In this document: one piece after another, positions 50,392-64,000 of the stretch
Layout: the number at the start of each line of letters is the position of its first letter
Numbering within the stretch: position 1 is the first letter of the stretch
Source: Acidimicrobiales bacterium
GTDB lineage: Bacteria > Actinomycetota > Acidimicrobiia > Acidimicrobiales > Bog-793
DNA: 64,000 nt
Assembly: GCA_035532075.1 (NCBI GenBank)
Contig: DATKRV010000003.1
Span: forward strand, 9,083-73,082
Direction: 5' to 3'
Made by a program: the position numbers and the translations under genes
The notes under the pieces: model-generated
Databases searched by the model: none
Told to the model about the DNA's origin: nothing
Seen by the model: the letters and a program-made list of their open reading frames with translations, nothing else

Positions 50392-51798
50392 GTGCCCCAC
50401 GTGACGAAAGAACTTGATCTCGGAAAGTACTCGCTCGGTTGGAGCGACGAAGAGGACTATGTCTTCAAGCCCCGCAAGGGCCTCAACGAGGAGATCGTCC
50501 GGGAGATGTCAAGGATCAAAGGCGAGCCAGAATGGATGCTGAAGTTCCGTCTCAGCGCCTACCGGCGTTTTCGCGAGAAGCCGATGCTTGACTGGTTCGC
50601 GACAAAGATGCCTGGACTTGATTTCGAGGACATCTACTACTACATCAAGCCAACCGCCGGTCTTGTCGACGCGTGGGAGGAACTCCCCGAGTCCGTGAAG
50701 AACACCTACGAGAAGCTCGGCATTCCCGAAGCCGAACGGAAGTACCTGGCCGGTGTGACCGCGCAGTACGAGTCAGAGGTGGTCTATCACCGCAACCGCG
50801 AGGATCTCGAAAAACTCGGTGTGTTGTTCAGTGACATGGACACTGCGGTGCGCGAGTACCCGGAGATCGTCCGCAAGTGGTTCGGCAAGATCATTCCGCC
50901 GAACGACAACAAGTTCGCAGCACTCAACTCGGCCGTGTGGTCGGGCGGCTCGTTCATCTACATCCCGCCTGGCGTCAAGGTCGACATGCCCCTGCAGGCG
51001 TATTTCCGGATCAATGCAGAGAACATGGGACAGTTCGAGCGCACGCTGATCATTGCCGATGAGGGCTCGCAGGTGCACTATGTCGAGGGTTGCTCGGCTC
51101 CGGTCTATTCGACCGACTCGCTGCACTCCGCAGTCGTCGAGCTCGTCGCTCTGCCGGGCAGCAGGATCACCTATACGACGATCCAGAACTGGTCGAACAA
51201 CGTCTATAACCTCGTGACCAAGCGTGCACGTGCAGAGACAGAGGCACACGTCGAATGGATCGACGGCAACATCGGGTCGCGTCTCACGATGAAGTATCCC
51301 TCGGTCTACCTGATGGGACCAAAGGCCTCCGGCGAGGTGCTCTCGGTTGCCTATGCGGGCGCCGGTCAGATCCAAGACACCGGAGCGAAGATGGTGCACT
51401 TTGCACCGGAGACGACATCGACGATCATCTCGAAGTCGATCTCCAAAGATGGCGGAATCACCACCTATCGCGGCAAGGTCCATGTGGATGAGGGCGCCAA
51501 GGGTGCGAAGTCCTTCGTGCGCTGTGATGCGCTCATTCTCGATGAGGAATCGACCTCAGAGACCAAGCCCTACATGGAGGTCGAAGAGCGGGACGCGCAG
51601 ATCGGGCATGAGGCGACGGTGTCAAAGGTCGGGGACGATCAGCTCTTCTATCTGATGAGCCGTGGGCTCTCCGAGACGCAGGCGACCTCGATGATCGTGA
51701 ACGGCTTCATCGAGCCGATCACAAGGACACTGCCGATGGAATATGCGGTCGAGTGGAGCCGACTGATCGAGCTGCAGATGGAAGGGTCGGTAGGCTGA
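50392..51798 (+). CDS. sufB: Fe-S cluster assembly protein SufB
   Basis: Contains ...[13 protein letters not shown]..., [23 protein letters not shown] and the SufB C-terminal beta-helix. The GTG at 50401 is an alternative start. Confidence 0.93.
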
Positions 51799-51847
51799 GA
51801 ACCTGCCTTTGACGTTACGTCAGCAGCACCGAGGAGGTCCGGCTCAC

Positions 51848-52216
51848 ATGCCGATGCGCGAGGAATGCAAGAACTATCAATCGAGGACGTATGCGAACGG
51901 CGAAGTAGCCCGTCTCTGCATCCTTGGTCTCGCTCCCGAGGCACCCTGGCGCTGTCCTGAGAACTGTCCGTCCTATGTCCGTCGTCTGGCGGACGCGGGC
52001 TGGACGCATGGAAGCCTGATCGAACCACCGATTGAAGACGAACCCGAGGGAGCAAATGTCGCTGAACTGCTCGACAATGCAGAGGACATCGTGAACGCGG
52101 TCGTCGCGTCAACGCGCGAAGAGGTACTCGCCGCCCGCGATGAACGAGAGGGCGACTCATTCGGCCGCGGTCTGCGTCGATTATTTCGCAAGAACAATCC
52201 AAAGAGAGATCAATGA
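51848..52216 (+). CDS. small Cys4 protein of unknown function inserted between sufB and sufD
   Basis: The product reads MPMREECKNYQSRTYANGEVARLCILGLAPEAPWRCPENCPSYV..., followed by an acidic/basic tail. GAGGAGG lies 10 nt upstream. Its stop overlaps the sufD ATG (ATGA). Confidence 0.5.
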   Translation: MPMREECKNYQSRTYANGEVARLCILGLAPEAPWRCPENCPSYVRRLADAGWTHGSLIEPPIEDEPEGANVAELLDNAEDIVNAVVASTREEVLAARDEREGDSFGRGLRRLFRKNNPKRDQ

Positions 52217-53523
52217 ACCTTTCGGACCGAAGATTTTCCGCCGAGTCCCTCGAGGCACTCGGAGGTTCAGAATGGGTCGCGCGCTATCGAGCATCGGCAC
52301 TCGCCCGACTGAGCGAAGTCCATGAGGCGACGTCGACGGCCGAGGACTGGCGTTATGGCCGTATCGACGAGCTCGATCTCTCGAGTTATGGCGTGGTCTT
52401 GCCACGTATCCATGAGGCAATTCCGATTAGCTCGGCGTCGCGCGCGTTTCTCGATGACTTTGGAGACCATGGGGCGCTCGTGCATGTGATCGACGGGGTG
52501 CTCGTCTCGGTCGAACTTCGCGATGAGATCAAGCACTCCGGTATCACGATCGGTTCGATCGCGGACTTTGACCTGCCGATCGAGGAGTTCGGTTCGCTGC
52601 TCAGTCTTGTCGACGAGCCGTTCGGAGTACTCAATGACGCCTTTGCGCCAGCGGCGACGGTGATCGATGTCCCCGCGAACTCGGCATTCGAGCCTCCGAT
52701 CGTGGTGATATCAGAGCTTTCGGAGGCCGCGGTCGAGGGACTCTCCTACGCGCGTCTGTTCATCCGTCTTGGTGTCTTCGCACAGGCCTCCGTTGTGGTC
52801 TTTCAGACCTCTCTCGATGGAAGACTCCTTCATGTTCCGGTGGTTGAGACCTTTGTCGGAGAGTCGGCCCATCTGCGCCTCGACCTCGTCCAGCAACTCG
52901 CCGAGCGATCGTGGCTGCTCGGTTACCAGCTTGCAGAGATCGGGCGCGATGCAACGCTGAGCGCGTTCTCGGCATCGCTCGGTGCGGACTACTCGCGTCT
53001 CTACTCCAGGGCCGCGCTTGCCGGTGAGGGCGGCGAGAGCCGTCTCTTTGCCGCCTACCTTGGAATTGCAACCCAGGTTCAAGAGTTCCGCACCTTCCAG
53101 GATCATCTCGTCGGTCGGACCAAGAGCGAACTGATCTTCAAAGGAGCGGTCGCGGACCACGCACGTTCGGTGTATTCGGGCATGATCCACATGCGAAAGG
53201 GAGCTCGGCGCGCGGATGCCTCCCAGACGAACCGGAATCTCGTACTGAGCGAGGGCGCACATGCCGATTCGGTTCCCAATCTCGATATCGACGAGAACGA
53301 CGTGCACTGCAGCCACGCCTCAGCGGTGGGACCAATCGATCCAGATCAGCTCTTCTATCTCGAATCGCGCGGAATTCCCCCGGAGGTCGCGGAACGACTC
53401 ATCCTGCTTGGCTTTTTCGATGATCTGTTGTCCAGGGCGAACAATGCGGGATGCGCAACCTATATCCGTAAAGATGTCGAGCTCCGGCTCGCGGATTCGA
53501 TCTATGCGCAGCTCGCATCATGA
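52213..53523 (+). CDS. sufD: Fe-S cluster assembly protein SufD
   Basis: The product is 436 aa. It contains ...QTNRNLVLSEGAHADSVPNLDIDENDVHCSHASAVGPIDPDQLFYLESRGI.... Confidence 0.9.
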   Translation: MNLSDRRFSAESLEALGGSEWVARYRASALARLSEVHEATSTAEDWRYGRIDELDLSSYGVVLPRIHEAIPISSASRAFLDDFGDHGALVHVIDGVLVSVELRDEIKHSGITIGSIADFDLPIEEFGSLLSLVDEPFGVLNDAFAPAATVIDVPANSAFEPPIVVISELSEAAVEGLSYARLFIRLGVFAQASVVVFQTSLDGRLLHVPVVETFVGESAHLRLDLVQQLAERSWLLGYQLAEIGRDATLSAFSASLGADYSRLYSRAALAGEGGESRLFAAYLGIATQVQEFRTFQDHLVGRTKSELIFKGAVADHARSVYSGMIHMRKGARRADASQTNRNLVLSEGAHADSVPNLDIDENDVHCSHASAVGPIDPDQLFYLESRGIPPEVAERLILLGFFDDLLSRANNAGCATYIRKDVELRLADSIYAQLAS

Positions 53524-53843
53524 GTGAGGTTGGATTCGTGGATCTGTGTGGTGCCGAAGAGATGGCACTCGGGGAGGCGAGAAGGTTCATGCTCGAGGTT
53601 GGGCCGGTCTGTCTGGTCCGGTGCAACGGGGGGTTCCGCGCGATCCTCGATGTCTGTAGCCATGAGGACTTTCCGCTCTCCGAAGGAGAGGTCGAACTCG
53701 AAGAGTGCCTGATTGAATGCTGGAAGCACGGCAGTATGTTCTCGCTCGATACCGGTGAGCCGATGTCGTTCCCTGCCACACAGCCCGTTCCGGTCTATGC
53801 GGTCCTGATCGAAAACGGACGGGTGTTGGTGAAGGCCCAGTGA
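53520..53843 (+). CDS. Rieske [2Fe-2S] domain protein (suf-associated)
   Basis: It has the CxH and CxxH pairs VCSHED and ECWKHGSMF. Its start and stop overlap the neighbouring genes by 4 nt each. Confidence 0.8.
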   Translation: MSEVGFVDLCGAEEMALGEARRFMLEVGPVCLVRCNGGFRAILDVCSHEDFPLSEGEVELEECLIECWKHGSMFSLDTGEPMSFPATQPVPVYAVLIENGRVLVKAQ

Positions 53844-54625
53844 GTACGCTTCGTATCGCTGGACTTCGTGCCGCAATCGGTTCGAAAGAGGTCCTCAGGG
53901 GAATCGACCTCGAGATCTGCTCGGGTGAGATCCACGCGATCATGGGGCCAAACGGCGCTGGCAAGTCCTCGCTCGCCAATGTCCTGATGGGCAATCGCGC
54001 CTATCTGGTGACGGAGGGATCCGTCACCCTCGACGGGGTCGATCTGCTTTCGCTGAGCACCTATGAGCGCGCCGGTGCCGGGCTGTTCCTTGCCTCGCAG
54101 AGTCCGATGGAGATTCCCGGTGTCCCCCTCCTTTCGCTGTTGCGAGAGGCGCTGCTCGCCCAGGGACGCGCCGACGAGGCCGAGGAGGAGTCATTGCTCG
54201 CGCGCCTTGACAAAGAGGCGCTCTCGATCGGTGTACCCGAGGCGATGCTCGGGCGCGCGGTCAATGTCGATGCCTCAGGTGGTGAGAAGAAGCGACTCGA
54301 GACCCTCCAGCTCGCGATCCTCCAGCCACGGATCGCGCTCTTGGACGAACTCGACTCGGGCCTCGATGTCGATGCACTGCGCGATGTCGCGCGTCGCATC
54401 GAACGACAGGCACACGCACCTGAACCCGGAACGATTGCCATCGGGGTCCTCGCGATCACGCACTATCGCCGCCTGCTCGACGAGCTCCATCCTGATGGGG
54501 TGCATGTCTATGTGAACGGCAGGATCGTCAAGTCGGGCGGTCTTGAGCTCGCAGATGAACTTGAACGCGATGGTTACGCTGCCTACACCGAGGATGAGCC
54601 GGTCTCCGATTTCATCTTCCCATAG
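53840..54625 (+). CDS. sufC: Fe-S cluster assembly ATPase SufC
   Basis: Contains GPNGAGKSSL (Walker A), SGGEKKR (ABC signature) and LLDELDSGLD (Walker B). Confidence 0.95.
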   Translation: MSTLRIAGLRAAIGSKEVLRGIDLEICSGEIHAIMGPNGAGKSSLANVLMGNRAYLVTEGSVTLDGVDLLSLSTYERAGAGLFLASQSPMEIPGVPLLSLLREALLAQGRADEAEEESLLARLDKEALSIGVPEAMLGRAVNVDASGGEKKRLETLQLAILQPRIALLDELDSGLDVDALRDVARRIERQAHAPEPGTIAIGVLAITHYRRLLDELHPDGVHVYVNGRIVKSGGLELADELERDGYAAYTEDEPVSDFIFP

Positions 54626-54650
54626 TCCTTTTCGGCCCTAATCTCTCGGG

Positions 54651-55058
54651 GTGATGATGCATCTCTTAGCGCCGGATCCGAACGCGCACCTTGGCACGCT
54701 GCTCAGCTTCCATCAGGTGTGGGGCTATCTCGTCATCACCGGGAACGGTCTCGCCGGGCTCTGGGCCCTCGTTGCCAACTATCGCGAGAAACTTCGTACG
54801 AGAGCACTCTGGTGGTTTACCTTCTTCGTCGAGGCGGCGATATTTGTCCAGATTGGCTCCGGACTTGGTCTTGTCGAGGGCGAACACGCGAGGCCGCTCG
54901 CGTTCCATCCGTTCTACGGGTTCTTCGCCGTCGTCGTCGTCGGGTTCCTCTTTGCCTACCGACGGCAGCTGTTCGCGCGTCGCTACCTGCTCTATGGATA
55001 CGGCGGTTTGTTTTTGATGGGCATCGGAATCCGCGCGCTCATCACTGCGCACGCCTGA
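54651..55058 (+). CDS. hypothetical membrane protein (about 4 TM helices)
   Basis: This is a 135-aa hydrophobic ORF (VWGYLVITGNGLAGLWALVANY..., WWFTFFVEAAIFVQIGSGLGLV...). No family was recognised. Confidence 0.45.
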   Translation: MMMHLLAPDPNAHLGTLLSFHQVWGYLVITGNGLAGLWALVANYREKLRTRALWWFTFFVEAAIFVQIGSGLGLVEGEHARPLAFHPFYGFFAVVVVGFLFAYRRQLFARRYLLYGYGGLFLMGIGIRALITAHA

Positions 55059-55424
55059 CGACCTTCTCGGAGATGCCGCTCCCAGGTGCTGATTTTGAGT
55101 ACTGGAGTACCAGGTTCCGGGAGACCCCTTTCTCGTTTCTCGCGCCTGGGAAACGCACGATTCCGATCTCTTGAGTCGTGATGAGAGGTCGCCGCCCCGA
55201 TCTTCACTGACGTGTCGGCGCTCATTGCGTCGCGCGTTGAGCGATGGGCGATAATACGGCTTGCGAATGGCGATAACCGGGTAGCCTTCGTGGCCGTCCA
55301 CCGGATTGCAACCGCCCCCCAACACTTCCCGCTAGTATCTGCGAAAGCCGGATGATGCCCCGGCGGGCCACAAAGCCCGAACTGCCCAGCGAGTTGGGTT
55401 GATGGCCTCTACGCGAATGTCGAC

Positions 55425-56408
55425 ATGCGTGGAGGTCGCGTCTTGAGTCAGACACAGCTGGCAGCGCCTGTCATCCAGGCTTTGCAGGATCTCACGATCC
55501 TGTTCGGTGCCCCGTTGGTGAGCGGTGTCATCGCGCATGTCGAAGGTCGCATTCAAGGCCGTCGTGGTCCGCGAGTCTTTCAACCCTACTACGACCTAGC
55601 AAAACTCTTTCGCAAAGAGACTGTCGTCCCCGAAGGATCGAGTTGGGTCTTCCTCGTCGGACCTATCATCGCGTTCTCCTGCTATCTCATCGTCCCGCTT
55701 CTCATCCCGGTGCTCACAACCTATGGACTGCCCCTCGGCTACATGGGCGACATCTTGGGAGGTGGCTTCATCCTCGCCCTCGCCGGGTTCTCGGTCGCGA
55801 TCGCCGGCACGGAGTCAGGTGCTCCGTACGCACAGCTTGGGGCCAGCCGGGCGATGACCTTCGGCGCGCTCATCGAGCCGACGATCCTCTTCGTCGTCTT
55901 TGCCGTTGGGATCATCACAGCAACCGACCTTCCCTATGCGCTCGCTGCGACCGTGCGTTCCTCGACGGGCGAGATTGTCCGCCCGGCGCACATTCTCGCG
56001 GCGATCGCTTTCTTTCTTGTGGTACTCGCCGATACCGGCAGGATCCCGGTCGAGACGCACTCGGGAACCTTGGAGTTCGGAATGATCGATGAGGGTCGGA
56101 CCCTCGAGCACTCGGGCGCGCCGTTCGCATTGCTCAGGTGGGGATCGACGATGAAGCAGCTGATCCTCTACACGATCCTCATCGATGTCTTCGTCGCGCC
56201 GTGGGGCCTTGCCACAGATCGGCGACCAGCTTCAGTCGTCCTTGCCATTCCATCTCTTCTCGGGAAGGCCATGGTTGTCGGCTGCATATTCGCGATTATC
56301 GACAACTCCTTCTCGAAGTTGCGTCTGTTCAAGATCACCGAGTTCCTCGCCGCGGCGTTCCTTCTTGCCGTACTCGCCGTACTCGTCTTCTACCTGGGGG
56401 GTGGCTGA
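55425..56408 (+). CDS. NuoH/HycD/HyfC-like membrane subunit
   Basis: Contains VEGRIQGRRGPRVFQPYYDLAKLFRKE and multiple TM helices. The product is 327 aa. Confidence 0.85.
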   Translation: MRGGRVLSQTQLAAPVIQALQDLTILFGAPLVSGVIAHVEGRIQGRRGPRVFQPYYDLAKLFRKETVVPEGSSWVFLVGPIIAFSCYLIVPLLIPVLTTYGLPLGYMGDILGGGFILALAGFSVAIAGTESGAPYAQLGASRAMTFGALIEPTILFVVFAVGIITATDLPYALAATVRSSTGEIVRPAHILAAIAFFLVVLADTGRIPVETHSGTLEFGMIDEGRTLEHSGAPFALLRWGSTMKQLILYTILIDVFVAPWGLATDRRPASVVLAIPSLLGKAMVVGCIFAIIDNSFSKLRLFKITEFLAAAFLLAVLAVLVFYLGGG

Positions 56409-57076
56409 TGCCGCACGCCGCACCTTCCACCTTCACGGGTGCCGTAGACGTCATCGCCGTGCTCGTCTTGCTGACGGAGTTCGCGATGCTGCGCGCCCCG
56501 ATGCTGCGTTCACAGGTACGCCTCTACGCGTTCCAGTCACTCGTTGTTACCGCGCTCGCAATCGTCGTCGCGGCGACCCGTCACATCGACGAGATCTATG
56601 TCCTCGCGGCGCTGTCGTTCATCTTGAAGGTCATCATCGTGCCGCGAATCGTGCTCCGTCTGCTTTCGCGCGCCGAGGTCAGTCTCGCCGGCAGCTCGGC
56701 CTTCAGCGTCGCCACGATGACATTGATCGCGATCGTGATGTCGGTCTTCGCGTTCTTCTCGGTCGGCGCACTGCACCTGCAGTCCACAGCGCTCCCATCG
56801 GCGGCTCTCGCGATCTCCGTCGCGGTGGTGCTCGTCGCGTTCGTGCTCATCATCTTGCGTTCCGACGTCGTCTCCCAGGCGATCGGATTCTTCTCGCTCG
56901 AGAACGGTGTCTCAGTCGCAAGCCTTGTCGTGGCCTCCGGGCTCCCCCTTATCGTCGATGTCGCGTTCCTGTTCGATCTCCTCGTCGCGGTCGTCGTCTT
57001 CGGCGTGTTGATGCGGATCCACCACGGCCGCACGAAAACACTGTCCACTGACTCGCTCGATCGGCTGAAGGGCTAG
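56408..57076 (+). CDS. HyfE-like (NuoK-related) membrane subunit
   Basis: The ATG overlaps the upstream TGA (TGATG). The 222-aa hydrophobic product has AIGFFSLENGVSVASL, typical of hydrogenase-4 component E. Confidence 0.78.
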   Translation: MPHAAPSTFTGAVDVIAVLVLLTEFAMLRAPMLRSQVRLYAFQSLVVTALAIVVAATRHIDEIYVLAALSFILKVIIVPRIVLRLLSRAEVSLAGSSAFSVATMTLIAIVMSVFAFFSVGALHLQSTALPSAALAISVAVVLVAFVLIILRSDVVSQAIGFFSLENGVSVASLVVASGLPLIVDVAFLFDLLVAVVVFGVLMRIHHGRTKTLSTDSLDRLKG

Positions 57077-57080
57077 CGCG

Positions 57081-58553
57081 ATGAACCACGTGCTGCTTGC
57101 CATCGTGATTGTTCCCGTCGTCACGTCGATCGCCACCTGGTGGACCCCTCCAGCGATCTCGAAGGTAGTCACGATCGGTTCGGGGATCGCACTGTTCCTC
57201 CTCGCGCTGGCCCTCATTCCGAGTGCGACCGCTCACAGCTACCTCGCTGTTGGGTCGGTGCTTCGGGTCGATGCGCTCTCAGTCGTCTTCCTGGTGCCGA
57301 CAACGTTTCTCTACGCGACGACATCGATTTTCGCGGCGGGCTACCTCCACCTTCCAGAGGGCGAGGCTGGACGGCGCTATGCGCGACGTTTTTTCGTGGG
57401 ACTTAACGTCTTCTGCTGGTCGATGGCCGTCGCACCGCTCGTGAATGGGTTGGCGCTGTTGTGGGTGATGATCGAGGTGACGACCGTCATCTCTGCGCTG
57501 TTAGTCGCGATTGACGATACCGACGGTGCGACCGAGGCGGCTTGGAAGTACGTCATCCTCGCGTCGCTCGGGCTTGGCATCGCGCTCTTCGCGACGATCA
57601 TCATGTACTACGCGGGAACCCGCTTCTTCGGTTCCTCTTACGACCCCTCCTACAACAAGCTCCTCTCGGGCGCACACGCCTTCCCGAAGGACGTCGTCCG
57701 GCTCGCGGACGTGCTCGCGGTACTTGGCTTTGGAACGAAGATGGGGCTCGTCCCGGTCCACACGTGGCTACCCGATGCACATTCCGAGGCGCCGACACCG
57801 ATCTCAGCACTGCTATCGGGGGCGCTGCTCGCGACAAGCTTTTATGCCATCCTTCGTTTCTTCCAGGTGAGTGTGCGTTGCCTCGGGCCGGCCTTTCCGA
57901 GGAACGTGCTGTTGATCTTCGGACTCGCTTCACTCGTTCTAGCTGCGTTTTACCTGCTCAGCCAACGCGACCTGAAGCGATTGCTTGCCTATTCGAGCGT
58001 CGAGCACATGGGGATCCTCGCGATCGGGATGAGCTTTTCCGCTCCGCTTGCGATCGTCGGCGTGCTGCTGCACGTCATCGCGCACGGCGCGGCGAAGGGC
58101 ACGGCGTTCTTCGGGGCGGGCTCGGTCGCCCGCAAGTTCAAGTCGAAGGACATGGCTCGAATACGCGGCGGTGTGGGACTGTTGCCCTGGAGCGGCCCAA
58201 TGCTCGTCCTCGCGGTGCTCGCCCTCTCCGCGATGCCGCCGTTTGGGATCTTCCGGAGCGAATTCCTCATCGTCGCCGGCGGGCTCTCGGATCCACGCGA
58301 TGCCATCGCCGCAGTGCTCGTCGTGTTCGTCACCGTTGCGTTTTTTGGCCTGTCGTGGTTCACGACGAAGACGATGCTCTCTCCCGTGCCCGAGCGGGAG
58401 AGGCTGCGACTCGGACGCGGCGAGACGAGCTGGCTCATCGTCGTCGCGATGGCGGTCGGACTCGTCGGACTCGTCATTCTCGGCGTTCACGTGCCCGGAC
58501 AGCTGAACGAACTCCTCCAGCACGCCGCGAGCCAGCTCGAGGTGGCGCGATGA
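57081..58553 (+). CDS. NuoN/NuoM/HyfF-like antiporter-type subunit
   Basis: The 490-aa product contains GLVPVHTWLPDAHSEAPTPISALLSGALL and LAYSSVEHMG. Confidence 0.85.
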   Translation: MNHVLLAIVIVPVVTSIATWWTPPAISKVVTIGSGIALFLLALALIPSATAHSYLAVGSVLRVDALSVVFLVPTTFLYATTSIFAAGYLHLPEGEAGRRYARRFFVGLNVFCWSMAVAPLVNGLALLWVMIEVTTVISALLVAIDDTDGATEAAWKYVILASLGLGIALFATIIMYYAGTRFFGSSYDPSYNKLLSGAHAFPKDVVRLADVLAVLGFGTKMGLVPVHTWLPDAHSEAPTPISALLSGALLATSFYAILRFFQVSVRCLGPAFPRNVLLIFGLASLVLAAFYLLSQRDLKRLLAYSSVEHMGILAIGMSFSAPLAIVGVLLHVIAHGAAKGTAFFGAGSVARKFKSKDMARIRGGVGLLPWSGPMLVLAVLALSAMPPFGIFRSEFLIVAGGLSDPRDAIAAVLVVFVTVAFFGLSWFTTKTMLSPVPERERLRLGRGETSWLIVVAMAVGLVGLVILGVHVPGQLNELLQHAASQLEVAR

Positions 58554-60052
58554 CTATGGATGGGGCCGCGGTCGAGGTGAGGCCCGAGCTGTTCGCGACC
58601 GAGGTGGCAGGCATACTGGGCAGCACACACCGACTCGCCGCGCTGTTCGCGATGCCACAGGCGCGTTGCGTCCGTCTCGTTGCCGTCCTCGCCGGACAGG
58701 GGCGGCTTATGGTGATTGCGGCAACACTTGCCGAGGGGACGACCTCGTATCCGTCGGTCACCGCGCTCGTGCCCGGTGCCGACTGGTATGAACGGGAGAT
58801 CCACGATCTCTATGGGATCGAGGCGATCGGCCATCCGGACCTCGATCCGCTCGTTCTCCCTCTCTCACCCGGCTCGATCCGGCCGCGACCGGGATCGGGT
58901 GACCAGGTCGATCGACTCGTGCCCGACAGTGCACCGCTGCCAGCACTTGTGAGCGGCGAGGGCATGTTCACGATTTCCTATGGACCCGTGAGGTCGGGGG
59001 TCTTCGAGGCGATCGAGTACGTCATCGAGACTCCGGGGGAGGACTTCCCCCGTATCCAGACGCGTCCGCACTACAAGCACCGCGGGGTCGAGTTCGGCTT
59101 TGTCGGCCGAAGCGTCGAGGATGGTGTCTTGCTCGCCGAGAGGGTCGAGGGCGTCGCGACGATCGCGCATGCCACCGCGTATTGCGAGGCGATCGAACGC
59201 ATCTCGGGAGCCGAACCTCCACCCGCTGGTCAATTCGTCCGGGTTCTCCACGCGGAACTCGAGCGCATCGCCAATCACCTCGATTCGACGATCCGCCACA
59301 CGGAGGCGGCTGGGCAGGCAGTCGCCTTCGCGCGGCTCACGCTCCACAAGGAGCGCCTCATGCGACTCCGGGCAAAGCTGTGCGGCAATCGTTTCGGTCG
59401 TTGCGTCGTCGTTCCCGGCGGCGTCTGCGGAGCACCGTTGATCGAAGGGGTCGAGATCCTCGCCTCGGTCGACCACCTCGAGCGAGATATCCGTGCCGAT
59501 CTGAAGCTGTTGATGGCAACGCCGTCATTCCTCGACCGTTTGCGCGACACCGGGATACTGCCACCTTCGATCCTCGCGGTTCGCGGGGCCCTCGGTCCGC
59601 TCGCGCGTGGCTCTGGCATCGAAGAGGACGTGCGACGCTCACGACCCTACGGCGGTTACCGGAATCTCGGCTTTAGCTCGGCAAGCGGCGTGGAGGGTGA
59701 CGCGCTTGCCCGCCAACTCGTCCGCAATGACGAGATCTGGGGGAGTTTCCACCTCATTCGCCAGGCACTTGACGAGCTGGACCACCTGGCAGGGGTCGCG
59801 TGGTCTGCTCCCATGAGGACAGTGGCAACGGGGACATTGAGCGGAGAGGCGTTCGGGTGGGCGGAGGCGCCGCAGGGGGAGGTTCTCTATCTTGTACGCG
59901 TCGAGGACGGAGTGCTCACCCGGGTGAAACAACGTTCCGCCTCGTTTCACAACCTGGCGCTGTTCACCGCGGCCTTCCCGAAGGACATCACCACCGACTT
60001 TGCCTTCATCGAAGCGAGCTTCGGACTTTCGATTGCGGGAGCGGCCGGCTGA
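58550..60052 (+). CDS. NuoC-NuoD / HycE / HyfG-like large subunit lacking the [NiFe] cysteine ligands
   Basis: The start has an ATGA overlap with the upstream gene. The NuoC-like part reads ADWYEREIHDLYGI. The NuoD/large-subunit part reads ISYGPVRSGVFEAIEYVIETPGEDFPRIQTRPHYKHRGVE. The L1 position reads RVEGVATIAH and the C-terminus reads FIEASFGLSIAGAAG. Confidence 0.85.
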   Translation: MTMDGAAVEVRPELFATEVAGILGSTHRLAALFAMPQARCVRLVAVLAGQGRLMVIAATLAEGTTSYPSVTALVPGADWYEREIHDLYGIEAIGHPDLDPLVLPLSPGSIRPRPGSGDQVDRLVPDSAPLPALVSGEGMFTISYGPVRSGVFEAIEYVIETPGEDFPRIQTRPHYKHRGVEFGFVGRSVEDGVLLAERVEGVATIAHATAYCEAIERISGAEPPPAGQFVRVLHAELERIANHLDSTIRHTEAAGQAVAFARLTLHKERLMRLRAKLCGNRFGRCVVVPGGVCGAPLIEGVEILASVDHLERDIRADLKLLMATPSFLDRLRDTGILPPSILAVRGALGPLARGSGIEEDVRRSRPYGGYRNLGFSSASGVEGDALARQLVRNDEIWGSFHLIRQALDELDHLAGVAWSAPMRTVATGTLSGEAFGWAEAPQGEVLYLVRVEDGVLTRVKQRSASFHNLALFTAAFPKDITTDFAFIEASFGLSIAGAAG

Positions 60053-60870
60053 TGCCGTGGATGACGCGGGGTATCCGCGAGGGAATCGTCACGAGCCGAT
60101 ATCCACATCGGCCAGACGGATACGGACCGCTCTTTCGAGCCACCGTGTCGGTGTCTGGCGGCGAAGACGTCGCGCGGCTCGACGCACCTGAGGCAGTAGC
60201 CGTCGCGCAGCTGTGCCCGACCGGCGCAATCAAAACAGAGGGAGGGATCCGGGTGGACCGCGGCCTTTGCGTCGCCTGCGGTCGTTGTGTCGCGGCTCGA
60301 CCGGAGATGTTTTCCTTTGATGCCGATTTCGAGGTTGCCGCACTCCGTCGGGATCTGCTTGTCGTCTCGCGTCACGAGGAGGGGCAAAACGATCTCGCTG
60401 AACTGCGCGAGGGACTCGCGAGACGCGTCCGCGCGCTTCGCCGTTCGATCCATATCCGACACATCGACTGCGGTTCCGATGGATCTGAGGAGTGGGAGAT
60501 CGCGGCGCTCACCAATCCCTTCTACGACGTGCAGCGCCTTGGGATCTTCTTCACCGCGAGCCCTCGTCATGCTGATCTCCTTCTCGTCACGGGGGCCGGA
60601 GCGACCGGGATGCTCGGCGCACTCCATCGCACCTTTGACGCGATGCCGACGCCGAAACTGATCATCGCCATCGGGAGCGAGACGGCGAGCGGCGGTCTGC
60701 TTGCGCGGAGCTACGCCACGCGAGGTGGTATTGCCGATGATATCTCCGTCGATGTCTTCGTTCCGGGTTCGCCGCCGAGTCCCTTCGCGATTTTGCACGG
60801 AATTTTGCTCGCGATCGGTCTTATGCCCGTCCGTGGCAGCGATGCGACCCAAGCTGAGAGGTCATCGTGA
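60052..60870 (+). CDS. fusion of a NuoI/HyfH-like ferredoxin domain and a NuoB/HycG/HyfI-like small-subunit domain, most Fe-S ligands missing
   Basis: The start has a TGATG overlap with the upstream gene. The N-domain reads ...QLCPTGAI...CVACGRCVAARPE. The C-domain reads IDCGSDGSEEWEIAALTNPFYDVQRLGIFFTASPRHADLLLVTG...IAIGSETASGG...VFVPGSPPSP. Confidence 0.8.
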   Translation: MPWMTRGIREGIVTSRYPHRPDGYGPLFRATVSVSGGEDVARLDAPEAVAVAQLCPTGAIKTEGGIRVDRGLCVACGRCVAARPEMFSFDADFEVAALRRDLLVVSRHEEGQNDLAELREGLARRVRALRRSIHIRHIDCGSDGSEEWEIAALTNPFYDVQRLGIFFTASPRHADLLLVTGAGATGMLGALHRTFDAMPTPKLIIAIGSETASGGLLARSYATRGGIADDISVDVFVPGSPPSPFAILHGILLAIGLMPVRGSDATQAERSS

Positions 60871-62891
60871 ACGCGGCGCTCCTCGTCGCGGCTTTTGGCT
60901 GTTTTTGCGCGGGTGCGCTCGCGGACATCGTCCTTGTGAGTGCCAATCGCGCCCTTCGTCCGCTGCCGTACGGACTCGCGTTCGTCGGATCGGGACTGTG
61001 TCTTGCGGTTGGCATTCACGTCATCGCGGATGGAGCGCAGATGTACTCGCTCGGATCCCTGCTCGGCATTGGGACGACGACGGTCCGCCTCGACGATCTG
61101 GCGGGACTGTTCCTCACCCTGTTATTCGCGATCGGGGTCGCGGTGTCGGCATGTTCGATTACTTGGATCCGACGGGAAGAGAGTCCGCGTCGGCGTGGTC
61201 TCGGGGCGGCTTATTGCACGCTGCTTGCTTCGGTCGCGGCGATCCTTCTCGCCGCGGACGCGTTCACGTTCCTGTTTTCCTGGGAGATGCTCACCCTCTC
61301 GTTCTACGTGCTTGCCGGAGTGAACCGGGCCAACCGGCGCGAGGCACACGCGGCATGGCTGACGCTCGTCACCGGCAAGGTGAGCGGCGCGTGCCTCCTC
61401 TTTGGCTTTCTGCTCCTCGTCGGTCGAAGTGGGAGCTTTCTGCTCAGCGCCTGGCACGGTGTGGCGCCCGGGACGGTGCATGACATCGCCTACGCGCTGA
61501 TCGTCGTTGGCTTATCGACCAAGCTCGGCGTTGTGCCGTTGCAGGCGTGGATGCCGGTCGGCTACTCGGCAGCGCCTGGACCGACACGTGCCGCGATGGC
61601 GGGCATCGCGGCGAACGTCGGCGTCTATGGCCTGTGGCGCATCCTGTCGATCCTTGGACGCCCTCCGGTCTGGCTCGCCATCGCCGTGCTGTTGACCGGT
61701 GGCATCACCGCGCTGTTGGGCATTGCGTTCGCGGGAGTGCAACAGCGCCTATCGCGCGTTATCGCCTACTCGAGCATCGAGAACGCCGGCATCATCATTA
61801 CCGCCTTCGGTGTCGCGCTCGCCGGCGCGGTCACTTCGAACGCGACGCTCGAGGCGGCGGGACTGCTCGCGGCGAGTCTCCACGCTGTCGCGCACGCGAT
61901 CTCGAAGTCCGTGCTGTTTGCCGCTTCGGCGAACGTCGCGCAGGCGGTCGGGAGCGACGATCTTGAACGACTTCGCGGGATCGGGCGCTCCCTTCCCCTA
62001 TCGGGATGGACCTTTGGCGCGGGTGCATTGACGCTCGCCGGTCTGCCCCCGACGGTCGGATTCGTCTCCGAGTGGTTCGTCCTCGAAGCCCTGATGCAAC
62101 AGTTTCGCCTGCCGGGCCTCGCACTTCGTCTCGCGATGGCTGGTGCAGGCGCGCTCATCGCACTCACCTCCGGACTCGCGGCACTCGCCTTTGTGCGGAT
62201 CCTTGGCCTCGTCTTTCTTGGACCTCCGATGCCCGAGGTCGACCGTCGTTCGGAGAGAGGATTCTTCGGTCGTGCTGGCCTCGTCTCCCTCGGCACGAGC
62301 TGTTTCGCGCTCGCCGCGATCTCCCCACTTGAGATCCGTTTCCTTGCTCGCGGACTATCGCCAGTGGTCTCAAAGACTCTGGTCGAGCATGCACTCAAGT
62401 CGCCGTGGGTTCTCCAGCCGACCTATGCCGGATTCTCGATCCTTTCGCCCTCATGGCTCTCCGTCGTGATGCCAATCCTCTTCGCAGTGGTAACGGTCGC
62501 GGCCGTCGCGGTCTCTCGCGGACGCTATTTCAAGATTCGTCGTGCCCCGGCCTGGCACTCTGCGACCTCTGGAGTGCACGGTCCGTCGAACTACACCGCG
62601 TTCGGTTTCGCGAATCCGCTCCGTCATGTGCTCGCGAACATTCTTGGCACGCGGCGAGAGGCGATACTCCTCGAAACCGTTGCGGACAATACGAGAGGTC
62701 GGGGACGCGTCGAGTACACGACGAGCATCGTCGAGCCAGTCGAGGCCTACCTCTATCGACCGATCCGGATCGGAGCGCTGGCACTCGCGCGGCTTGTAAA
62801 ATCTCTCCAGTCTGGACGTCTCGAAGCATACGTTGCCTACATGCTCTTCGCGCTTGTAGTCGCGCTCGCGGTCACCGCGGGACTTCGATGA
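60867..62891 (+). CDS. NuoL/HyfB-like antiporter-type subunit
   Basis: The start has a GTGA overlap with the upstream gene. The 674-aa product contains FLFSWEMLTLSFYVL and VPLQAWMPVGYSAAPGPTRAAMAGI. Confidence 0.85.
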   Translation: MNAALLVAAFGCFCAGALADIVLVSANRALRPLPYGLAFVGSGLCLAVGIHVIADGAQMYSLGSLLGIGTTTVRLDDLAGLFLTLLFAIGVAVSACSITWIRREESPRRRGLGAAYCTLLASVAAILLAADAFTFLFSWEMLTLSFYVLAGVNRANRREAHAAWLTLVTGKVSGACLLFGFLLLVGRSGSFLLSAWHGVAPGTVHDIAYALIVVGLSTKLGVVPLQAWMPVGYSAAPGPTRAAMAGIAANVGVYGLWRILSILGRPPVWLAIAVLLTGGITALLGIAFAGVQQRLSRVIAYSSIENAGIIITAFGVALAGAVTSNATLEAAGLLAASLHAVAHAISKSVLFAASANVAQAVGSDDLERLRGIGRSLPLSGWTFGAGALTLAGLPPTVGFVSEWFVLEALMQQFRLPGLALRLAMAGAGALIALTSGLAALAFVRILGLVFLGPPMPEVDRRSERGFFGRAGLVSLGTSCFALAAISPLEIRFLARGLSPVVSKTLVEHALKSPWVLQPTYAGFSILSPSWLSVVMPILFAVVTVAAVAVSRGRYFKIRRAPAWHSATSGVHGPSNYTAFGFANPLRHVLANILGTRREAILLETVADNTRGRGRVEYTTSIVEPVEAYLYRPIRIGALALARLVKSLQSGRLEAYVAYMLFALVVALAVTAGLR

Positions 62892-62907: not shown

Positions 62908-63378
62908 ATGACGACGAGACACGATCTGCTGCTCGGAGGTCGATTGCGGCGCCTCCTCGTCTGTTTCGGCGGGTTGCCAGAATCCATGAAGGCGATCGAG
63001 CTCTTGCTCGATCTCGGCAAGGCGCTCGGTGCCCAACTGACGATCTTCAGTGTCCTCGCCGGAGCTGCACACCTTGAGTCCACTGAAGTGCAACATGCCG
63101 CAGAGCACACCGCGCGTGAACATCTCGGTGCGCAGCTCACCGGTATTCTGCGCTGCGCCGCGGACTCCGGTGTGCAATTTCGCGAAGTGAATGTCATCGG
63201 TGGCGATCCTGGCGAGGAGATCACTCGGTACGCGACCGAGCATGGATTCGACCTTGTGGTCATCGGAAGTCACGGGCAATATCGCGTCGCCCACGGCGGT
63301 CTCGGTCGAGTCGTCGAGCGGCTGCTGCGACGTTCGAAGTGCCCGGTGCTCGTCGCTCCCGCTCGCGCGGACCGCTAG
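62908..63378 (+). CDS. universal stress protein (UspA family)
   Basis: Contains HGFDLVVIGSHGQYRVAHGGLGRVVERLLRRSKCPVLVAP. Confidence 0.8.
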   Translation: MTTRHDLLLGGRLRRLLVCFGGLPESMKAIELLLDLGKALGAQLTIFSVLAGAAHLESTEVQHAAEHTAREHLGAQLTGILRCAADSGVQFREVNVIGGDPGEEITRYATEHGFDLVVIGSHGQYRVAHGGLGRVVERLLRRSKCPVLVAPARADR

Positions 63379-63387: not shown

Positions 63388-64000
63388 ATGCTCATCGTTG
63401 TCGATGGAGCATGCGATCTCCCGCCGGCTCTGCGTGATTGTGAGGAGGTCGTCGTCGTACCGTTTCACGTCCTTCTCGCGGGTTCGCCGTTCGTCGGCAA
63501 AGACGACGAATTCGACGCGCTGCTCTGCTCAGGTGCCAAGCTGAGCAGTGCGCCGCCAGGTGACGAATTGTTCACCGCTGCTTTTGGTGACCATCGGGAC
63601 ATCCTTGTCGTGACCGCCTCGACCTATTTGAGCGCTGCGGTAGAAGCTGCAACCTTCAGTGCGAGACGCGCTTTGGCGGATGTGCGTATCGTTGATTCGC
63701 GTACCTTTAGCGCCGGAAGCGGTCTCGTGGTCAACGCGCTTCGCGAAGCGATCGCCGATGGGATCGCGGTCTCCGAACTTGGCAAGCTCTGCGGGCAGAT
63801 CGTCGAGGCGACCCACACCTACGCGATCGTGGATCGACCGCAGGTGCTTGTTGGACACGGGCTACTTGGAAAGGTGAGGCTGAGTCATCTCTTTTGCCAT
63901 CCGGTGCTTGGAATCCGGGACCGAGCCCGTCTCTTGCGTCAGACGCGGTCTCGCAAACGGGCAATTGCCTGGCTGATCCACCACTTGCGCGAAACCCTCG
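63388..64000 (+). CDS. DegV-family (fatty-acid-binding) protein, partial (runs off the window end)
   Basis: The ATG at 63388 gives MLIVVDGACDLPPAL...VVVPFHVLLAGSPFVGKDD...SSAPPGDELFTAAF...DILVVTASTYLSAAVEAA...VRIVDSRTFSAGSGLVVNALREAIADG. The frame stays open to 64000. Confidence 0.65.
   Translation, partial: MLIVVDGACDLPPALRDCEEVVVVPFHVLLAGSPFVGKDDEFDALLCSGAKLSSAPPGDELFTAAFGDHRDILVVTASTYLSAAVEAATFSARRALADVRIVDSRTFSAGSGLVVNALREAIADGIAVSELGKLCGQIVEATHTYAIVDRPQVLVGHGLLGKVRLSHLFCHPVLGIRDRARLLRQTRSRKRAIAWLIHHLRETL

Follow-up and report, generated by a model that had tools for sequence, protein, structure and literature searches.

A membrane complex built like an energy-converting hydrogenase, whose subunits appear to have lost the expected metal ligands, raises the question of what it can still do. 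Six genes for such a complex are located on the forward strand of the 64,000-nucleotide stretch of DNA analysed here (the window), and the initial annotation regarded their products as a redox-dead, Ehr-like module. The Ehr concept dates from 2013 (BBA 1827:198, as cited in PMC4758237, PMC6349859, PMC10284858 and PMC10432482), and the literature assigns no function to Ehr (PMC6349859, PMC10284858, PMC10432482, PMC6728331).

Organization of the six-gene operon

The operon (55425 or 55443 to 62891, forward strand) contains six intact, translationally coupled ORFs, with coordinates and junctions as annotated initially. Gene 1 (55425–56408) encodes a NuoH/HycD-like membrane subunit (PF00146, NADHdh, 2.7e-36). 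ATG 55425 gives its longest ORF; TTG 55443, which is located 7 nt after a conserved GGAGG (55431–55435), is more likely the true start. Gene 2 (56408–57076) overlaps gene 1 through TGATG and encodes a HyfE-like small membrane subunit related to NuoK/J; it matches hydrogenase 4 membrane subunit (HyfE, NF008556) with 97 bits (1.2e-27), under the curated cut-off. Following a 4-nt gap, gene 3 (57081–58553) encodes one HyfF/NuoM-N-like antiporter-like subunit (PF00361, 2.9e-48; HyfF, 352 bits, 6e-105). Gene 4 (58550–60052), joined to gene 3 by ATGA, encodes the NuoC-NuoD/HycE-like 'large subunit', which contains Complex1_30kDa (PF00329), Complex1_49kDa (PF00346) and NiFeSe_Hases (PF00374) domains. 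In gene 5 (60052–60870, TGATG junction), half of a NuoI/HycF-type ferredoxin (Fer4, Fer4_13) is fused to a NuoB/HycG-like domain (Oxidored_q6). Gene 6 (60867–62891, GTGA junction) encodes the second antiporter-like subunit, of HyfB/NuoL type (HyfB, 404 bits, 9.5e-121; PF00361).

These Pfam and NCBIfam assignments match the Hyf/FHL/Mbh-type labels proposed earlier, with all six proteins scoring under the curated equivalog cut-offs of NCBIfam. The best relatives with solved structures are MbhL (6cfw_L, 7e-38), HycE (7z0s_E, 3e-33), HycG and MbhJ. Together, the six genes are a conserved operon, whose products belong to the group-4-hydrogenase/complex I superfamily and make up a membrane complex. 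Its membrane arm is of Hyf type, with the NuoH-like, the HyfE-like and two antiporter-like subunits, and the peripheral arm consists of the NuoC-NuoD and half-NuoI-NuoB fusions.

The closest named set is Escherichia coli hydrogenase 4/formate hydrogenlyase-2 (HyfA-J) and FHL-1 (HycB-G; PDB 7z0s). Genes 1–6 correspond to HyfC, HyfE, HyfF, HyfG, HyfH/HyfI and HyfB, respectively; the gene order C-E-F-G-(H+I) is the same and the HycD-type charged residues are conserved. Different from E. coli Hyf/FHL, the operon has no HyfA/HycB, HyfD, FdhF, HycI or Hyp, the NiFe and proximal ligands are absent, and HyfH and HyfI are fused with one cluster lost. Compared to respiratory complex I (NuoA-N), homologues of NuoH, NuoB, NuoC, NuoD, NuoI and NuoL/M/N are present, but quinone ligands, N2, NuoA/J and NuoEFG are not, and there are only two antiporter-like subunits.

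Lost and retained cofactor sites

In the alignment of gene 4 with HycE, C241 is replaced by E200, which is invariant, and C244 by A203, and the C-terminal DPCxxC (CxxC) motif is missing. E. coli NuoCD also has Glu (E272) at the first NiFe-Cys position. The NiFe ligands are missing in 120 of 120 close homologues. The quinone ligands H224 and Y273 of NuoCD are replaced by F152 and G201, and are missing in 76–78 of 78 sequences. The complex, a descendant of hydrogen-evolving enzymes, cannot be a [NiFe]-hydrogenase, and the canonical quinone site is absent.

Gene 5 has lost all four ligands of the proximal N2-type cluster: C48, C51, C115 and C145 of HycG correspond to D143, E146, E210 and S240. 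The replacements are Asp in 77/77 orthologues, Glu or Asp in 75/77, Asp or Glu in 77/77 and Ser in 73/77, and this pattern is strictly kept also in a clade of just 40% identity. It is a conserved substitution, not a series of random losses, and the ligand loss is common to about 77 orthologues from Acidimicrobiales genomes. In gene 5, Cys is conserved in four columns only, C55, C73, C76 and C79, which are invariant in all 77 orthologues and equivalent to HycF C50/C75/C78/C81 and NuoI C70/C99/C102/C105; the outer-cluster ligands (HycF C40/C43/C46/C85) are lost. The initial annotation was right that metal ligands had disappeared, as both the NiFe and the proximal-cluster cysteines are gone in the alignments with HycE and HycG. 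Its term 'redox-dead' is overstated, because the four invariant cysteines form one complete ferredoxin-type [4Fe-4S] site. The complex is thus predicted not to be fully cofactor-free.

According to automatic annotations ('Ni,Fe-hydrogenase III large subunit', 'formate hydrogenlyase subunit 5'), the complex would be a true formate hydrogenlyase or an energy-converting hydrogenase, and the subunit set is indeed homologous to Hyf/FHL. However, all four NiFe cysteines are missing in every homologue examined, the proximal cluster is gone, and the C-terminal extension for protease maturation was looked for in gene 4 and not found. The window contains no hyp, hycI, fdhF or hycB/hyfA, as claimed earlier for maturation and input genes, and hyp, protease, FDH, CODH and NuoEFG genes are all missing from its remainder; nor do any of these recur among the largest flanking ORF clusters, which were inspected for 80 orthologous loci over ±10 kb. 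With the NiFe and proximal ligands absent, the hydrogenase reading is refuted at the sequence level and retains practically no probability. Elsewhere, the genome could encode Hyp proteins, further hydrogenases or a partner module.

The published Ehr concept fits this complex. As far as the cited descriptions go, Ehr has the same group-4-hydrogenase/complex I-like subunits, including antiporter-like ones, and a large subunit without CxxC NiFe ligands. Compared to Ehr as described there, the proximal N2-type [4Fe-4S] cluster and one of the two NuoI-type clusters are also lost here, the ferredoxin and NuoB parts are fused, and the operon is preceded by a putative fluoride riboswitch. Paralogous Ehr operons of the same lineage (loci L041, L042 and L058) retain the four N2 cysteines; therefore, the complex studied here is a further-derived Ehr subtype, more cofactor-depleted than the paralogue. 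The Rv0082-Rv0087 locus of Mycobacterium tuberculosis presumably encodes the same six subunit types in cyclically permuted order. This DosR/Rv0081-regulated 'hyc' locus is described as being of Ehr type and not a functional hydrogenase (PMC6728331); different from our operon, no fluoride riboswitch is reported there.

Conservation of the ion-translocating machinery

The loss of cofactor ligands could also mark a decaying, functionless remnant of a hydrogenase operon, and the initial annotation had named a pseudogene cluster as an alternative. Relatives were found in 321 species-level genomes, with the same gene order in all complete loci; all six ORFs of the window are intact, as they are in about 50–77 orthologues per gene, and dN/dS is 0.06–0.19. 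The operon is therefore not decaying. The replacement residues and the cis-regulatory RNA are themselves conserved, and 39% of the positions of the NuoH-like protein are invariant. Purifying selection and the conservation across these genomes refute decay, to which we assign next to no probability. Both the operon and the riboswitch-variant motif described below occur in a cultured organism, Aciditerrimonas ferrireducens.

The membrane subunits are more conserved than the peripheral ones, and gene 1 is the best-conserved subunit (69–94% identity among orthologues). Its HycD/NuoH charged network is invariant (D57, K60, K64, E65, R142, E151, E210, E217, E223, E228, K244 and R300). In gene 2, K74, E165 and D190 are invariant and also present in E. 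coli HyfE. The charged chains of both antiporter-like subunits, described earlier as intact, are invariant indeed: E132, K220, H309, H335 and E394 of gene 3 in 69–70 of 70 sequences, and E140, K219, H343, K347 and E402 of gene 6.

A fluoride-riboswitch variant upstream of the operon

The strongest functional clue is located outside the coordinates of the initial annotation and was missed there. At 55346–55416 (forward strand), the operon is preceded by a predicted, structurally conserved variant of the fluoride riboswitch with one extra hairpin (P2) inserted after P1. In our structural model, P1 is formed by 55347–51/55360–64, P2 by 55365–68/55375–78, P3 by 55384–87/55396–99 and the pseudoknot by 55354–59/55404–09. 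Rfam RF01734 matches over its full length, ending 7 nt before the ORF, with 18.3 bits (gathering score 34; E=0.004–0.03), whereas our own covariance model (R1) gives the window aptamer 72.6 bits (E=9e-20). Over 66 homologous aptamers, pairing is kept in 95% of cells and 14 of 19 pairs show compensatory changes; none of 500 shuffles reaches the observed values. The pseudoknot is 94.7% paired, though it was left out of the model. In 60 of 62 loci, R1 detects the motif ≤150 nt before the nuoH-like gene; in the remaining two, a canonical fluoride riboswitch and then a His_Phos_1 gene precede the operon.

Like the canonical fluoride riboswitch (crcB motif, RF01734), the variant has GAUG in the P1 loop, AACYGCC, P3, the GGCUGAUGG..CUAC tail and the pseudoknot; different from it, P2, with about 10–70 nt between its strands, is located between P1 and AACYGCC. 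Because of this insertion, a gathering-threshold scan of five loci reported no variant. The RNA might instead be a derivative with changed ligand, or a constitutive leader, which would leave the operon fluoride-insensitive. The score of 18.3 bits against a gathering score of 34, the P2 insertion itself and pseudoknot column 12/151, which is unpaired in 17 of 66 sequences, point that way. However, the low score is explained by the extra hairpin, since the RF01734 model takes P2 for P1. The core nucleotides (GAUG, AACYGCC and GGCUGAUGGnnnCUAC) are the same as in canonical riboswitches of the same loci, a canonical fluoride riboswitch substitutes before the operon in two loci, and fluoride-resistance genes co-localise with the operon. 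A fluoride-insensitive leader is thus very improbable.

TAGTAT (55333–55338, forward strand), 8 nt before the aptamer, may be a −10 promoter element. Inspection by eye, without a count, showed a TANNNT-like hexamer in many orthologous leaders, ∼8–12 nt before the aptamer; a scan with the strict sigma-70 consensus gave no match.

Predicted expression platform and fluoride context

The putative expression platform spans 55406–55435 (forward strand). The aptamer tail CCUCUACGC (55406–14) can pair with GCGUGGAGG (55427–35), which contains the Shine-Dalgarno (SD) GGAGG (55431–35); this helix and the aptamer pseudoknot are mutually exclusive. Over 54 loci, its eight positions are 96–100% complementary, and the SD is sequestered by the tail in the MFE fold of 48 of the 54 leaders. 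In the window leader, the SD-sequestering fold (−43.4 kcal/mol) is 0.3 kcal/mol above the MFE (−43.7 kcal/mol). No covariation beyond conservation was found for the anti-SD helix, so that we count it as inferred. Without fluoride, the tail would pair with the SD and block translation of gene 1; upon fluoride binding, it would be held in the pseudoknot, freeing the SD and allowing expression of the operon. Such a translational SD-sequestering platform would be a further difference from RF01734.

The regulated operon probably extends to the two following genes on the same strand. One universal stress protein gene (usp, 62908–63378; PF00582, 1.8e-25) starts 17 nt downstream of gene 6, has a GGGAGGGAGG of its own and is probably co-transcribed with the operon. 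Of 66 orthologous loci, 30 have a usp gene on the operon strand ≤300 nt downstream, and one also follows the operon of the 40%-identical clade (L088). Ten nucleotides after usp, a DegV-family gene (63388–64000; PF02645, from identical contigs) runs off the window end; DegV occurs ≤900 nt downstream of the operon in 12 loci, and in L022, a further copy of the riboswitch variant belongs to DegV itself. Three fluoride riboswitches above the gathering score were found in related loci; in L089, one lies just behind the operon and immediately precedes crcB-DUF190-crcB. Of 80 loci, each covered to ±10 kb, 17–18 have CrcB, 21 DUF190 and 7 enolase. CrcB, enolase, Usp and phosphatase genes are neighbours in fluoride-riboswitch regulons as here. 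The crcB motif has been associated with 'formate hydrogen lyase' genes and Na+/H+ antiporters (PMC2864571; PMC11139923, citing Baker 2012), and the complex is probably this long-listed 'formate hydrogen lyase'.

Proposed function

Given the conserved riboswitch variant, the stresses suggested initially (hypoxia, acid) narrow to fluoride/HF stress. From regulation and residue conservation only, we infer, with moderate confidence, that the complex, presumably fluoride-switched, may translocate ions independently of redox chemistry and so protect pH and proton-motive force against HF. When HF enters by diffusion and dissociates, the complex, as a secondary proton/cation translocator, would help to restore cytoplasmic pH and proton-motive force; its route would be the NuoH channel and, in both antiporter-like subunits, the Lys/Glu/His chains, all of them intact. 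This rationale is likened to that of the Na+/H+ antiporters common in fluoride regulons. The peripheral arm would be kept as a gating or proton/cation-loading module, in which residues of the small subunit (D143, E146 and E210) and of the large subunit (E153, E197 and E200) would make up an acidic chamber, and the remaining Fe-S site would be structural or sensory, outside any electron path.

Ion exchange without redox would be shared with Mrp-type cation/proton antiporters, whose NuoL/M/N-like subunits have the same conserved TM5 Glu, TM7 Lys and TM12 Glu/Lys. However, Mrp has MrpB/C/E/F/G and neither a NuoH-like subunit nor a peripheral arm, and the complex is not an Mrp member. Mrp, a pure antiporter, manages without the arm that is conserved here. 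A secondary transporter also requires a driving gradient, and none is named in our proposal, which counts against it. The strongly conserved peripheral arm and 4-Cys site suggest that chemistry or sensing is still there.

The complex might still be a redox enzyme, in which a soluble donor such as ferredoxin would pass electrons through the single [4Fe-4S] cluster to a new acceptor site and so drive ion pumping. The literature generally takes Ehr to link ion translocation to a redox reaction in the cytoplasm (PMC6349859). The 4-Cys site is complete in 77/77 orthologues, the peripheral arm is under purifying selection, and the N2 cysteines of the paralogous Ehr mean that redox function exists in close relatives. 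However, with both N2, the next in line, and the outer partner-facing cluster gone, the retained cluster is isolated on both sides; from complex I geometry, we take its position to be too far from the former active site for one electron-tunnelling step. As no partner dehydrogenase is conserved among the largest flanking ORF clusters inspected in 80 loci, we consider redox-driven pumping unlikely.

Direct action on fluoride is also conceivable. Fluoride binds biomolecules mainly via Mg2+ held by carboxylates or phosphates, and, with the Asp/Glu/Asp metal site of enolase as model, the carboxylate/Ser pocket that replaces the N2 cluster might bind Mg2+ or Mn2+ and fluoride; the complex would then either expel fluoride or a metal-fluoride species by means of the proton-motive force, or be gated by it. 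The putative fluoride-riboswitch control, the nearby CrcB genes and the strictly kept D/E/D(E)/S residues, also in the 40%-identical clade, are consistent with this. However, the idea is purely one of analogy, we know of no anion-transporting member of the superfamily, and a second fluoride exporter is not obviously needed because operon-bearing genomes also carry Fluc/CrcB channels; we regard it as distinctly unlikely. With redox-independent ion translocation under HF stress as the favoured reading, an enigmatic enzyme class would, for the first time, have a testable role, namely in fluoride and acid stress.

Gene composition of the operon

The operon consists of six intact ORFs on the + strand (55425–62891), with junctions exactly as in the initial annotation, and profile searches of all six proteins agreed with the subunit labels proposed there. 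Gene 1 (55425–56408) encodes one NuoH/HycD-like subunit (PF00146), gene 2 (56408–57076) one HyfE-like subunit (NF008556) and gene 3 (57081–58553) one HyfF/NuoM-N-like subunit (PF00361). Gene 4 (58550–60052) combines NuoC and NuoD/HycE-like domains (PF00329, PF00346, PF00374). In gene 5 (60052–60870), a single-cluster ferredoxin domain (Fer4_13) is fused to a NuoB/HycG domain (PF01058); gene 6 (60867–62891) is HyfB/NuoL-like. The homologous subunit set of group 4 [NiFe]-hydrogenases (large, small, NuoH-like and antiporter-like) is present in the operon. All six proteins score far below the NCBIfam equivalog cut-offs, and none is an orthologue of any named protein. The nearest solved structures are MbhL (7e-38), HycE (3e-33), HycG and MbhJ; for the predicted folds, these matches to solved homologues suffice and are decisive.

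Loss and retention of cofactor sites

Gene 4 was aligned with Escherichia coli HycE, HyfG and NuoCD from the MG1655 record. As had been claimed, the NiFe ligands are lost, with both N-terminal cysteines replaced. HycE C241 corresponds to E200, which is Glu in 120/120 database homologues and 78/78 locus-derived orthologues; HycE C244 corresponds to A203, which is Ala in 117 of the 120 homologues and also in the 78 orthologues. The N-terminal RxCGxCxxxH motif with the two NiFe-ligating cysteines is absent from the gene 4 large subunit, and so are the C-terminal DPCxxCxx(H/R) motif and the protease-cleaved extension; the protein ends with ...FIEASFGLSIAGAAG, which contains no Cys. Distant relatives that are true hydrogenases have a C-terminal LCYxCxDR. 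Gene 4 also lacks the quinone-head-group His of the complex I β1–β2 loop and the Tyr next to the first former-Cys position: E. coli NuoCD H224 is replaced by F152 (76/78 orthologues) and Y273 by G201 (78/78 orthologues).

The small subunit, for which ligand loss had been proposed as well, behaves in the same way. HycG C48, C51, C115 and C145, the ligands of the proximal [4Fe-4S] cluster N2, correspond to D143, E146, E210 and S240 of gene 5. Position 143 is Asp in 77/77 orthologues, position 146 is Glu or Asp in 75/77, position 210 is Asp or Glu in 77/77 and position 240 is Ser in 73/77. The replacement of the N2 cysteines is best described as conserved substitution, not erosion. Lacking the NiFe and N2 cysteines and the C-terminal motif, the operon cannot be read as a genuine hydrogenase; the predicted complex is not a hydrogenase and is without the canonical quinone-binding residues of complex I.

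The term "redox-dead", used in the initial annotation, holds for the NiFe and N2 sites and fails for one four-Cys ferredoxin-type site, which is invariant in 77/77 orthologues. Gene 5 has exactly four conserved Cys columns among these orthologues (53–74% identity), C55, C73, C76 and C79, all invariant, which align with HycF C50/C75/C78/C81 and NuoI C70/C99/C102/C105. In 2x[4Fe-4S] ferredoxins, one cubane is ligated by such a set, made up of the "CP" cysteine of motif 1 and the CxxCxxC of motif 2. One Fe–S site is therefore probably retained in the complex; we take it to be equivalent to N6b of Thermus complex I, the neighbour of N2. Different from respiratory complex I, which has N2 in NuoB and two NuoI clusters, the operon keeps only the NuoI C70/C99/C102/C105 set; the ligands of the outer NuoI-type cluster are lost from gene 5, which does not carry the two-cluster set of complex I. 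A residual, ferredoxin-dependent redox function would make use of the invariant site. Since the ligands of both N2 and the outer cluster are gone, the kept site has lost its connection to either end of the ancestral electron wire, and we regard such a function as unlikely.

Conservation and selection

A scan with one genome per species detected relatives in 321 genomes, and the 80 best loci come without exception from metagenome-assembled genomes of Acidimicrobiales or Acidimicrobiaceae, many of them from peat, palsa, bog and Danish soils. The operon is also carried by Aciditerrimonas ferrireducens (GCA_023130475.1, contig JAKHEX010000004.1), the only cultured organism found; none of 20 cluster representatives was labelled as Mycobacterium. 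The gene order is the same in every complete locus. The membrane subunits are better conserved than the large and small subunits, with identities among orthologues of 69–94% for the NuoH-like, 52–77% for the large and 53–74% for the small subunit.

Pairwise comparison of the window with the four closest loci gave dN/dS values of 0.06–0.19 for all six genes, and the ORFs are intact in all orthologues. These data refute decay of the operon and rule out relaxed selection; the initial annotation had itself named a decaying pseudogene cluster as one outcome that would overturn its reading. Its view of the antiporter-like subunits as intact is borne out too: the TM5 Glu, TM7 Lys, TM8 His/Lys and TM12 Glu are invariant in both, namely E140, K219, H343, K347 and E402 in gene 6, and E132, K220, H335 and E394 in gene 3. 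The loop and channel residues of HycD/NuoH are invariant, as are 39% of all NuoH-like positions. The ion-translocating apparatus is kept in the complex.

Relationship to Ehr complexes and other known systems

Complexes of the energy-converting hydrogenase-related (Ehr) class are widespread, occurring in nitrifiers, candidate phyla and mycobacteria, to which the present scan adds at least 321 species of Acidimicrobiales from peat and acidic soils. They are defined by a large subunit that is homologous to group 4 hydrogenases and NuoD and has no NiFe Cys ligands (PMC6349859, PMC10284858, PMC10432482); the role of Ehr is repeatedly described as unknown (PMC6349859, PMC10284858, PMC10432482, PMC4758237). 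The Rv0081–87 locus of Mycobacterium tuberculosis has been described in the same terms (PMC6728331). Gene 4 has such a large subunit, and NuoH-like and Mrp/antiporter-like membrane subunits are co-encoded in the operon, so the Ehr-like class proposed initially fits the definition.

To place the operon within the superfamily, 1.84 billion representative proteins were searched for homologues, and motifs were then extracted from the matches. The large subunit of the window falls in an "ERxEG...LSIAGxAG" clade, nested in a large ligand-less radiation with other motifs (ERISGD..., ERVAG...). Genuine hydrogenases (ERxCGxC...LCYxCxDR) among the relatives share only ∼32–37% identity. The operon and the Mrp cation/proton antiporter have MrpA/MrpD-like subunits with the Glu/Lys chain in common; however, Mrp contains MrpB/C/E/F/G and has no NuoH-like subunit or peripheral arm, whereas the operon encodes NuoH-like, HyfE-like, NuoCD-like and NuoI-B-like proteins instead.

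Some of the same genomes contain a second, paralogous Ehr operon (L041:1-6700 on the - strand, L042:12813-16276 and L058:14371-15326, in three orthologous loci), whose NuoH is ∼45% and whose large subunit is ∼34% identical. Its large subunit is also without NiFe ligands (ERMEGLSAVAN), but none of the four N2 cysteines is missing from its small subunit (TGSCAACESE, TGACALGG, PGCPP). In the clade of locus L088, which is only 40% identical, the ferredoxin (Fer4) and NuoB genes are separate, and the small subunit already shows the GSDGGEE/GTDA/PGSPP pattern. Comparison with the paralogous Ehr operon and with L088 shows that the absence of N2 represents a more derived condition.

A fluoride riboswitch variant upstream of gene 1

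In the 800-nt gap before gene 1, a sensitive scan with Rfam gave one RF01734 match (55353–55418) over the full model length; at 18.3 bits (E 0.004–0.03), it did not reach the gathering threshold of 34 bits. On inspecting the upstream sequence of every locus, we found a strikingly conserved motif, located at 55346–55416 in the window. It contains, in order, CCGGAUGAGGCCCCGG (which forms P1), one variable hairpin P2, GAACYGCC, P3 and GGCUGAUGGCCUCUACG. The fluoride-riboswitch core is present (GAUG loop, AACYGCC, GGCUGAUGG..CUAC), and P1, P3 and the pseudoknot are supported by covariation (alignments A2 and A4). We identify the motif, on the strength of these elements, as a fluoride aptamer core carrying an additional hairpin, inserted behind P1. 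RF01734 takes this P2 hairpin for P1, which explains the low Rfam score; annotation that relies on Rfam's gathering threshold is likely to miss the variant.

We built a covariance model of the variant, R1, from 29 motif copies. R1 matches the motif at 42–84 bits, with 72.6 bits (E=9e-20) for the window. Of the 62 loci that include the stretch up to 150 nt upstream of the nuoH-like gene, 60 have the motif there; in the other two (L022, L038), one canonical fluoride riboswitch is followed by a histidine-phosphatase-family gene and then by the operon. Across 66 copies, 95% of cells are paired, with compensatory changes in 14/19 pairs; none of 500 shuffles reached the observed values, and slid controls were 31–56% paired. 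The pseudoknot, which lies outside the model, is 94.7% paired in the 66 copies. A change of ligand could be suspected in an aptamer with an inserted hairpin; given the retained core, and with canonical fluoride riboswitches also found in the same loci as the operon, we consider it very improbable.

The variant also occurs before other genes. Strong copies (48–84 bits), all on the - strand unless noted, precede DegV (L022:5676-5740), one 294-aa ORF without assigned family (L066:2193-2259), one 183-aa ORF (L023:3874-3940) and short ORFs (L041:17671-17738, + strand). In L016 and L032, weaker matches of canonical length (24–33 bits) stand before histidine-phosphatase/PGM-like genes, and another such weaker match precedes CrcB in L008. 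Together these copies outline a wider fluoride regulon in the lineage. A weaker fluoride-riboswitch-like motif of canonical length also precedes the paralogous Ehr operon (R1, 20–26 bits). In L088, one weak riboswitch-like match lies upstream of the nuoH-like gene (3928–4002, 30.8 bits) and another after the Usp gene (12440–12516, 26.1 bits); pyrophosphatase, MFS and CrcB genes then follow.

The 3′ tail of the aptamer, CCUCUACGC (55406–55414), is complementary to GCGUGGAGG (55427–55435), which includes a conserved GGAGG located 3–13 nt (mostly 4–7) before a start codon. Eight positions between the tail and this stretch with the Shine–Dalgarno (SD) sequence are 96–100% complementary across 54 loci. 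The SD is sequestered by the tail in the minimum free energy (MFE) fold of 48/54 leaders, and in the window leader sequestration costs no more than 0.3 kcal/mol relative to the MFE. The pseudoknot is formed by the same CCUC nucleotides, so that pseudoknot and anti-SD helix exclude each other. We infer from this layout a translational ON switch, which would place the start of gene 1 at TTG 55443 rather than ATG 55425. The covariation test for the anti-SD helix was not significant, with nothing beyond conservation, since other constraints already conserve both strands; the helix is accordingly treated as putative. A scan of the leader for sigma-70 promoters and terminators found no consensus matches.

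Genomic neighbourhood

The 64-kb window contains no hyp, maturation endopeptidase, formate dehydrogenase, CO dehydrogenase or NuoEFG genes, in agreement with the initial annotation, and no crcB. When flanking ORFs within ±10 kb of the 80 loci were clustered, hyp and maturation endopeptidase genes did not recur among the largest ORF clusters, and no conserved partner or input module emerged, the only conserved neighbour being Usp. In the window, gene 6 is followed at 17 nt by one Usp gene and then by one DegV gene. The recurrent flanking genes are CrcB, DUF190, DegV, His_Phos_1 and enolase. CrcB was found within ±10 kb in 17–18 of the 80 loci, DUF190 in 21 and enolase in 7; at least one of these three homologues is present in 26/80, by rough estimate far above expectation for one- or two-copy genes. 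Related loci carry CrcB, DUF190, enolase and pyrophosphatase genes near the operon, together with fluoride riboswitches at gathering score. With such neighbours, the complex might act directly on fluoride or metal-fluoride species, which we hold to be quite improbable.

Upstream of the operon lies one SUF operon (SufB, SufD, Rieske, SufC; 50392–54625). Suf genes adjoin the operon in no other locus, so the adjacency is coincidental and a functional link was rejected. Within the SUF operon, one Rieske [2Fe-2S] gene (53520–53843) is inserted between sufD and sufC, and one 135-aa ORF without family assignment (51809–52216) lies between sufB and sufD; sufS or sufU does not follow sufC. The ∼700 nt between sufC and the riboswitch (54626–55330) contain only two overlapping candidate ORFs, both without Pfam matches (54651–55058, +; 54666–55325, -).

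Other features were observed in the window. The first ∼1–16 kb carry methyltransferase and glycosyltransferase genes at a GC content of 0.54–0.57, compared to ∼0.60 elsewhere, and may represent a mobile or horizontally acquired cell-envelope island; one ORF with a Mu-transposase C-terminal domain (PF22483, 3e-16) is located at 2885–4531 (-). The ORF at 8018–10306 (+, 762 aa), in which a GT2 domain is confined to the C-terminus, overlaps that at 9912–12062 (+, 716 aa, no Pfam match) by ∼400 nt, which could reflect a frameshift or mis-called start. Two tRNA genes (17523–17595 and 17770–17841, both -; Rfam 63.8 and 58.7 bits) adjoin gltX (18594–20015, -). One homologue of the TMEM175 potassium-channel family, best known from lysosomes, is encoded at 28881–29480 (-; PF06736, 1.5e-26). 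A 333-aa glutamine-synthetase-like ORF (31200–32201, -) matches the catalytic-domain profile only at 21–157 of 344 and may be a truncated or divergent protein.

Proposed function of the complex

The initial interpretation was largely right and yet incomplete, as it missed the riboswitch variant and the retained ferredoxin-type cysteine site. The complex sits behind a fluoride-riboswitch variant, and entry of HF is a realistic stress in an acidic-soil lineage. Identity and regulation of the complex are, in our judgement, very likely as described. Its function is proposed tentatively: the complex may be a fluoride-induced, redox-independent proton/cation translocator. Fluoride would induce the complex, which would translocate protons or cations without redox chemistry and thereby support the homeostasis of pH and proton-motive force. 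The peripheral arm, where an acidic pocket replaces N2 and the NiFe site, would gate the complex or load it with ions, and the one cluster left would have a structural or sensory role.

A more specific form of this proposal, which we consider less likely than not, is a fluoride-switched complex-I-type machine without any redox chemistry. The conserved carboxylate pocket at the former N2 site (Asp/Glu/Asp-or-Glu/Ser) would load the NuoH channel with protons or with a metal cation, which might be a Mg-fluoride species, and ion binding would drive or gate coupling in place of electron transfer. If true, such a redox-free machine would explain both the purpose of Ehr and the membership of "formate hydrogen lyase" in fluoride regulons.

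"Formate hydrogen lyase" and Na+/H+ antiporters are listed among the commonest genes associated with fluoride riboswitches (PMC2864571, PMC11139923), and one review takes the former to mean a switch towards fermentation. Judged from their sequences, the genes described here cannot encode a hydrogen-producing enzyme, which suggests another interpretation of this regulon member. Our literature search found no paper tying the fluoride-regulon "formate hydrogen lyase" genes to Ehr. Taken singly, neither the Ehr class nor the fluoride riboswitch is new. To our knowledge, within the literature searched, three points are new: the recognition of the fluoride-regulated "FHL" as an Ehr complex; a more heavily stripped subtype with a conserved carboxylate/Ser set in place of N2, one retained cluster and fused NuoI–NuoB; and a riboswitch variant whose inserted P2 escapes the Rfam threshold.

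Ehr complexes have so far been without known substrate, inducing condition or phenotype. The conserved riboswitch before one Ehr subtype provides a concrete candidate inducer and a testable setting, HF/acid stress, so that the function of Ehr, a question of long standing, can now be approached by experiment. For complex I coupling, the subtype offers a natural experiment: its proton-channel residues and antiporter chains have stayed intact, and its redox chain has shrunk to a single isolated cluster plus a carboxylate pocket.
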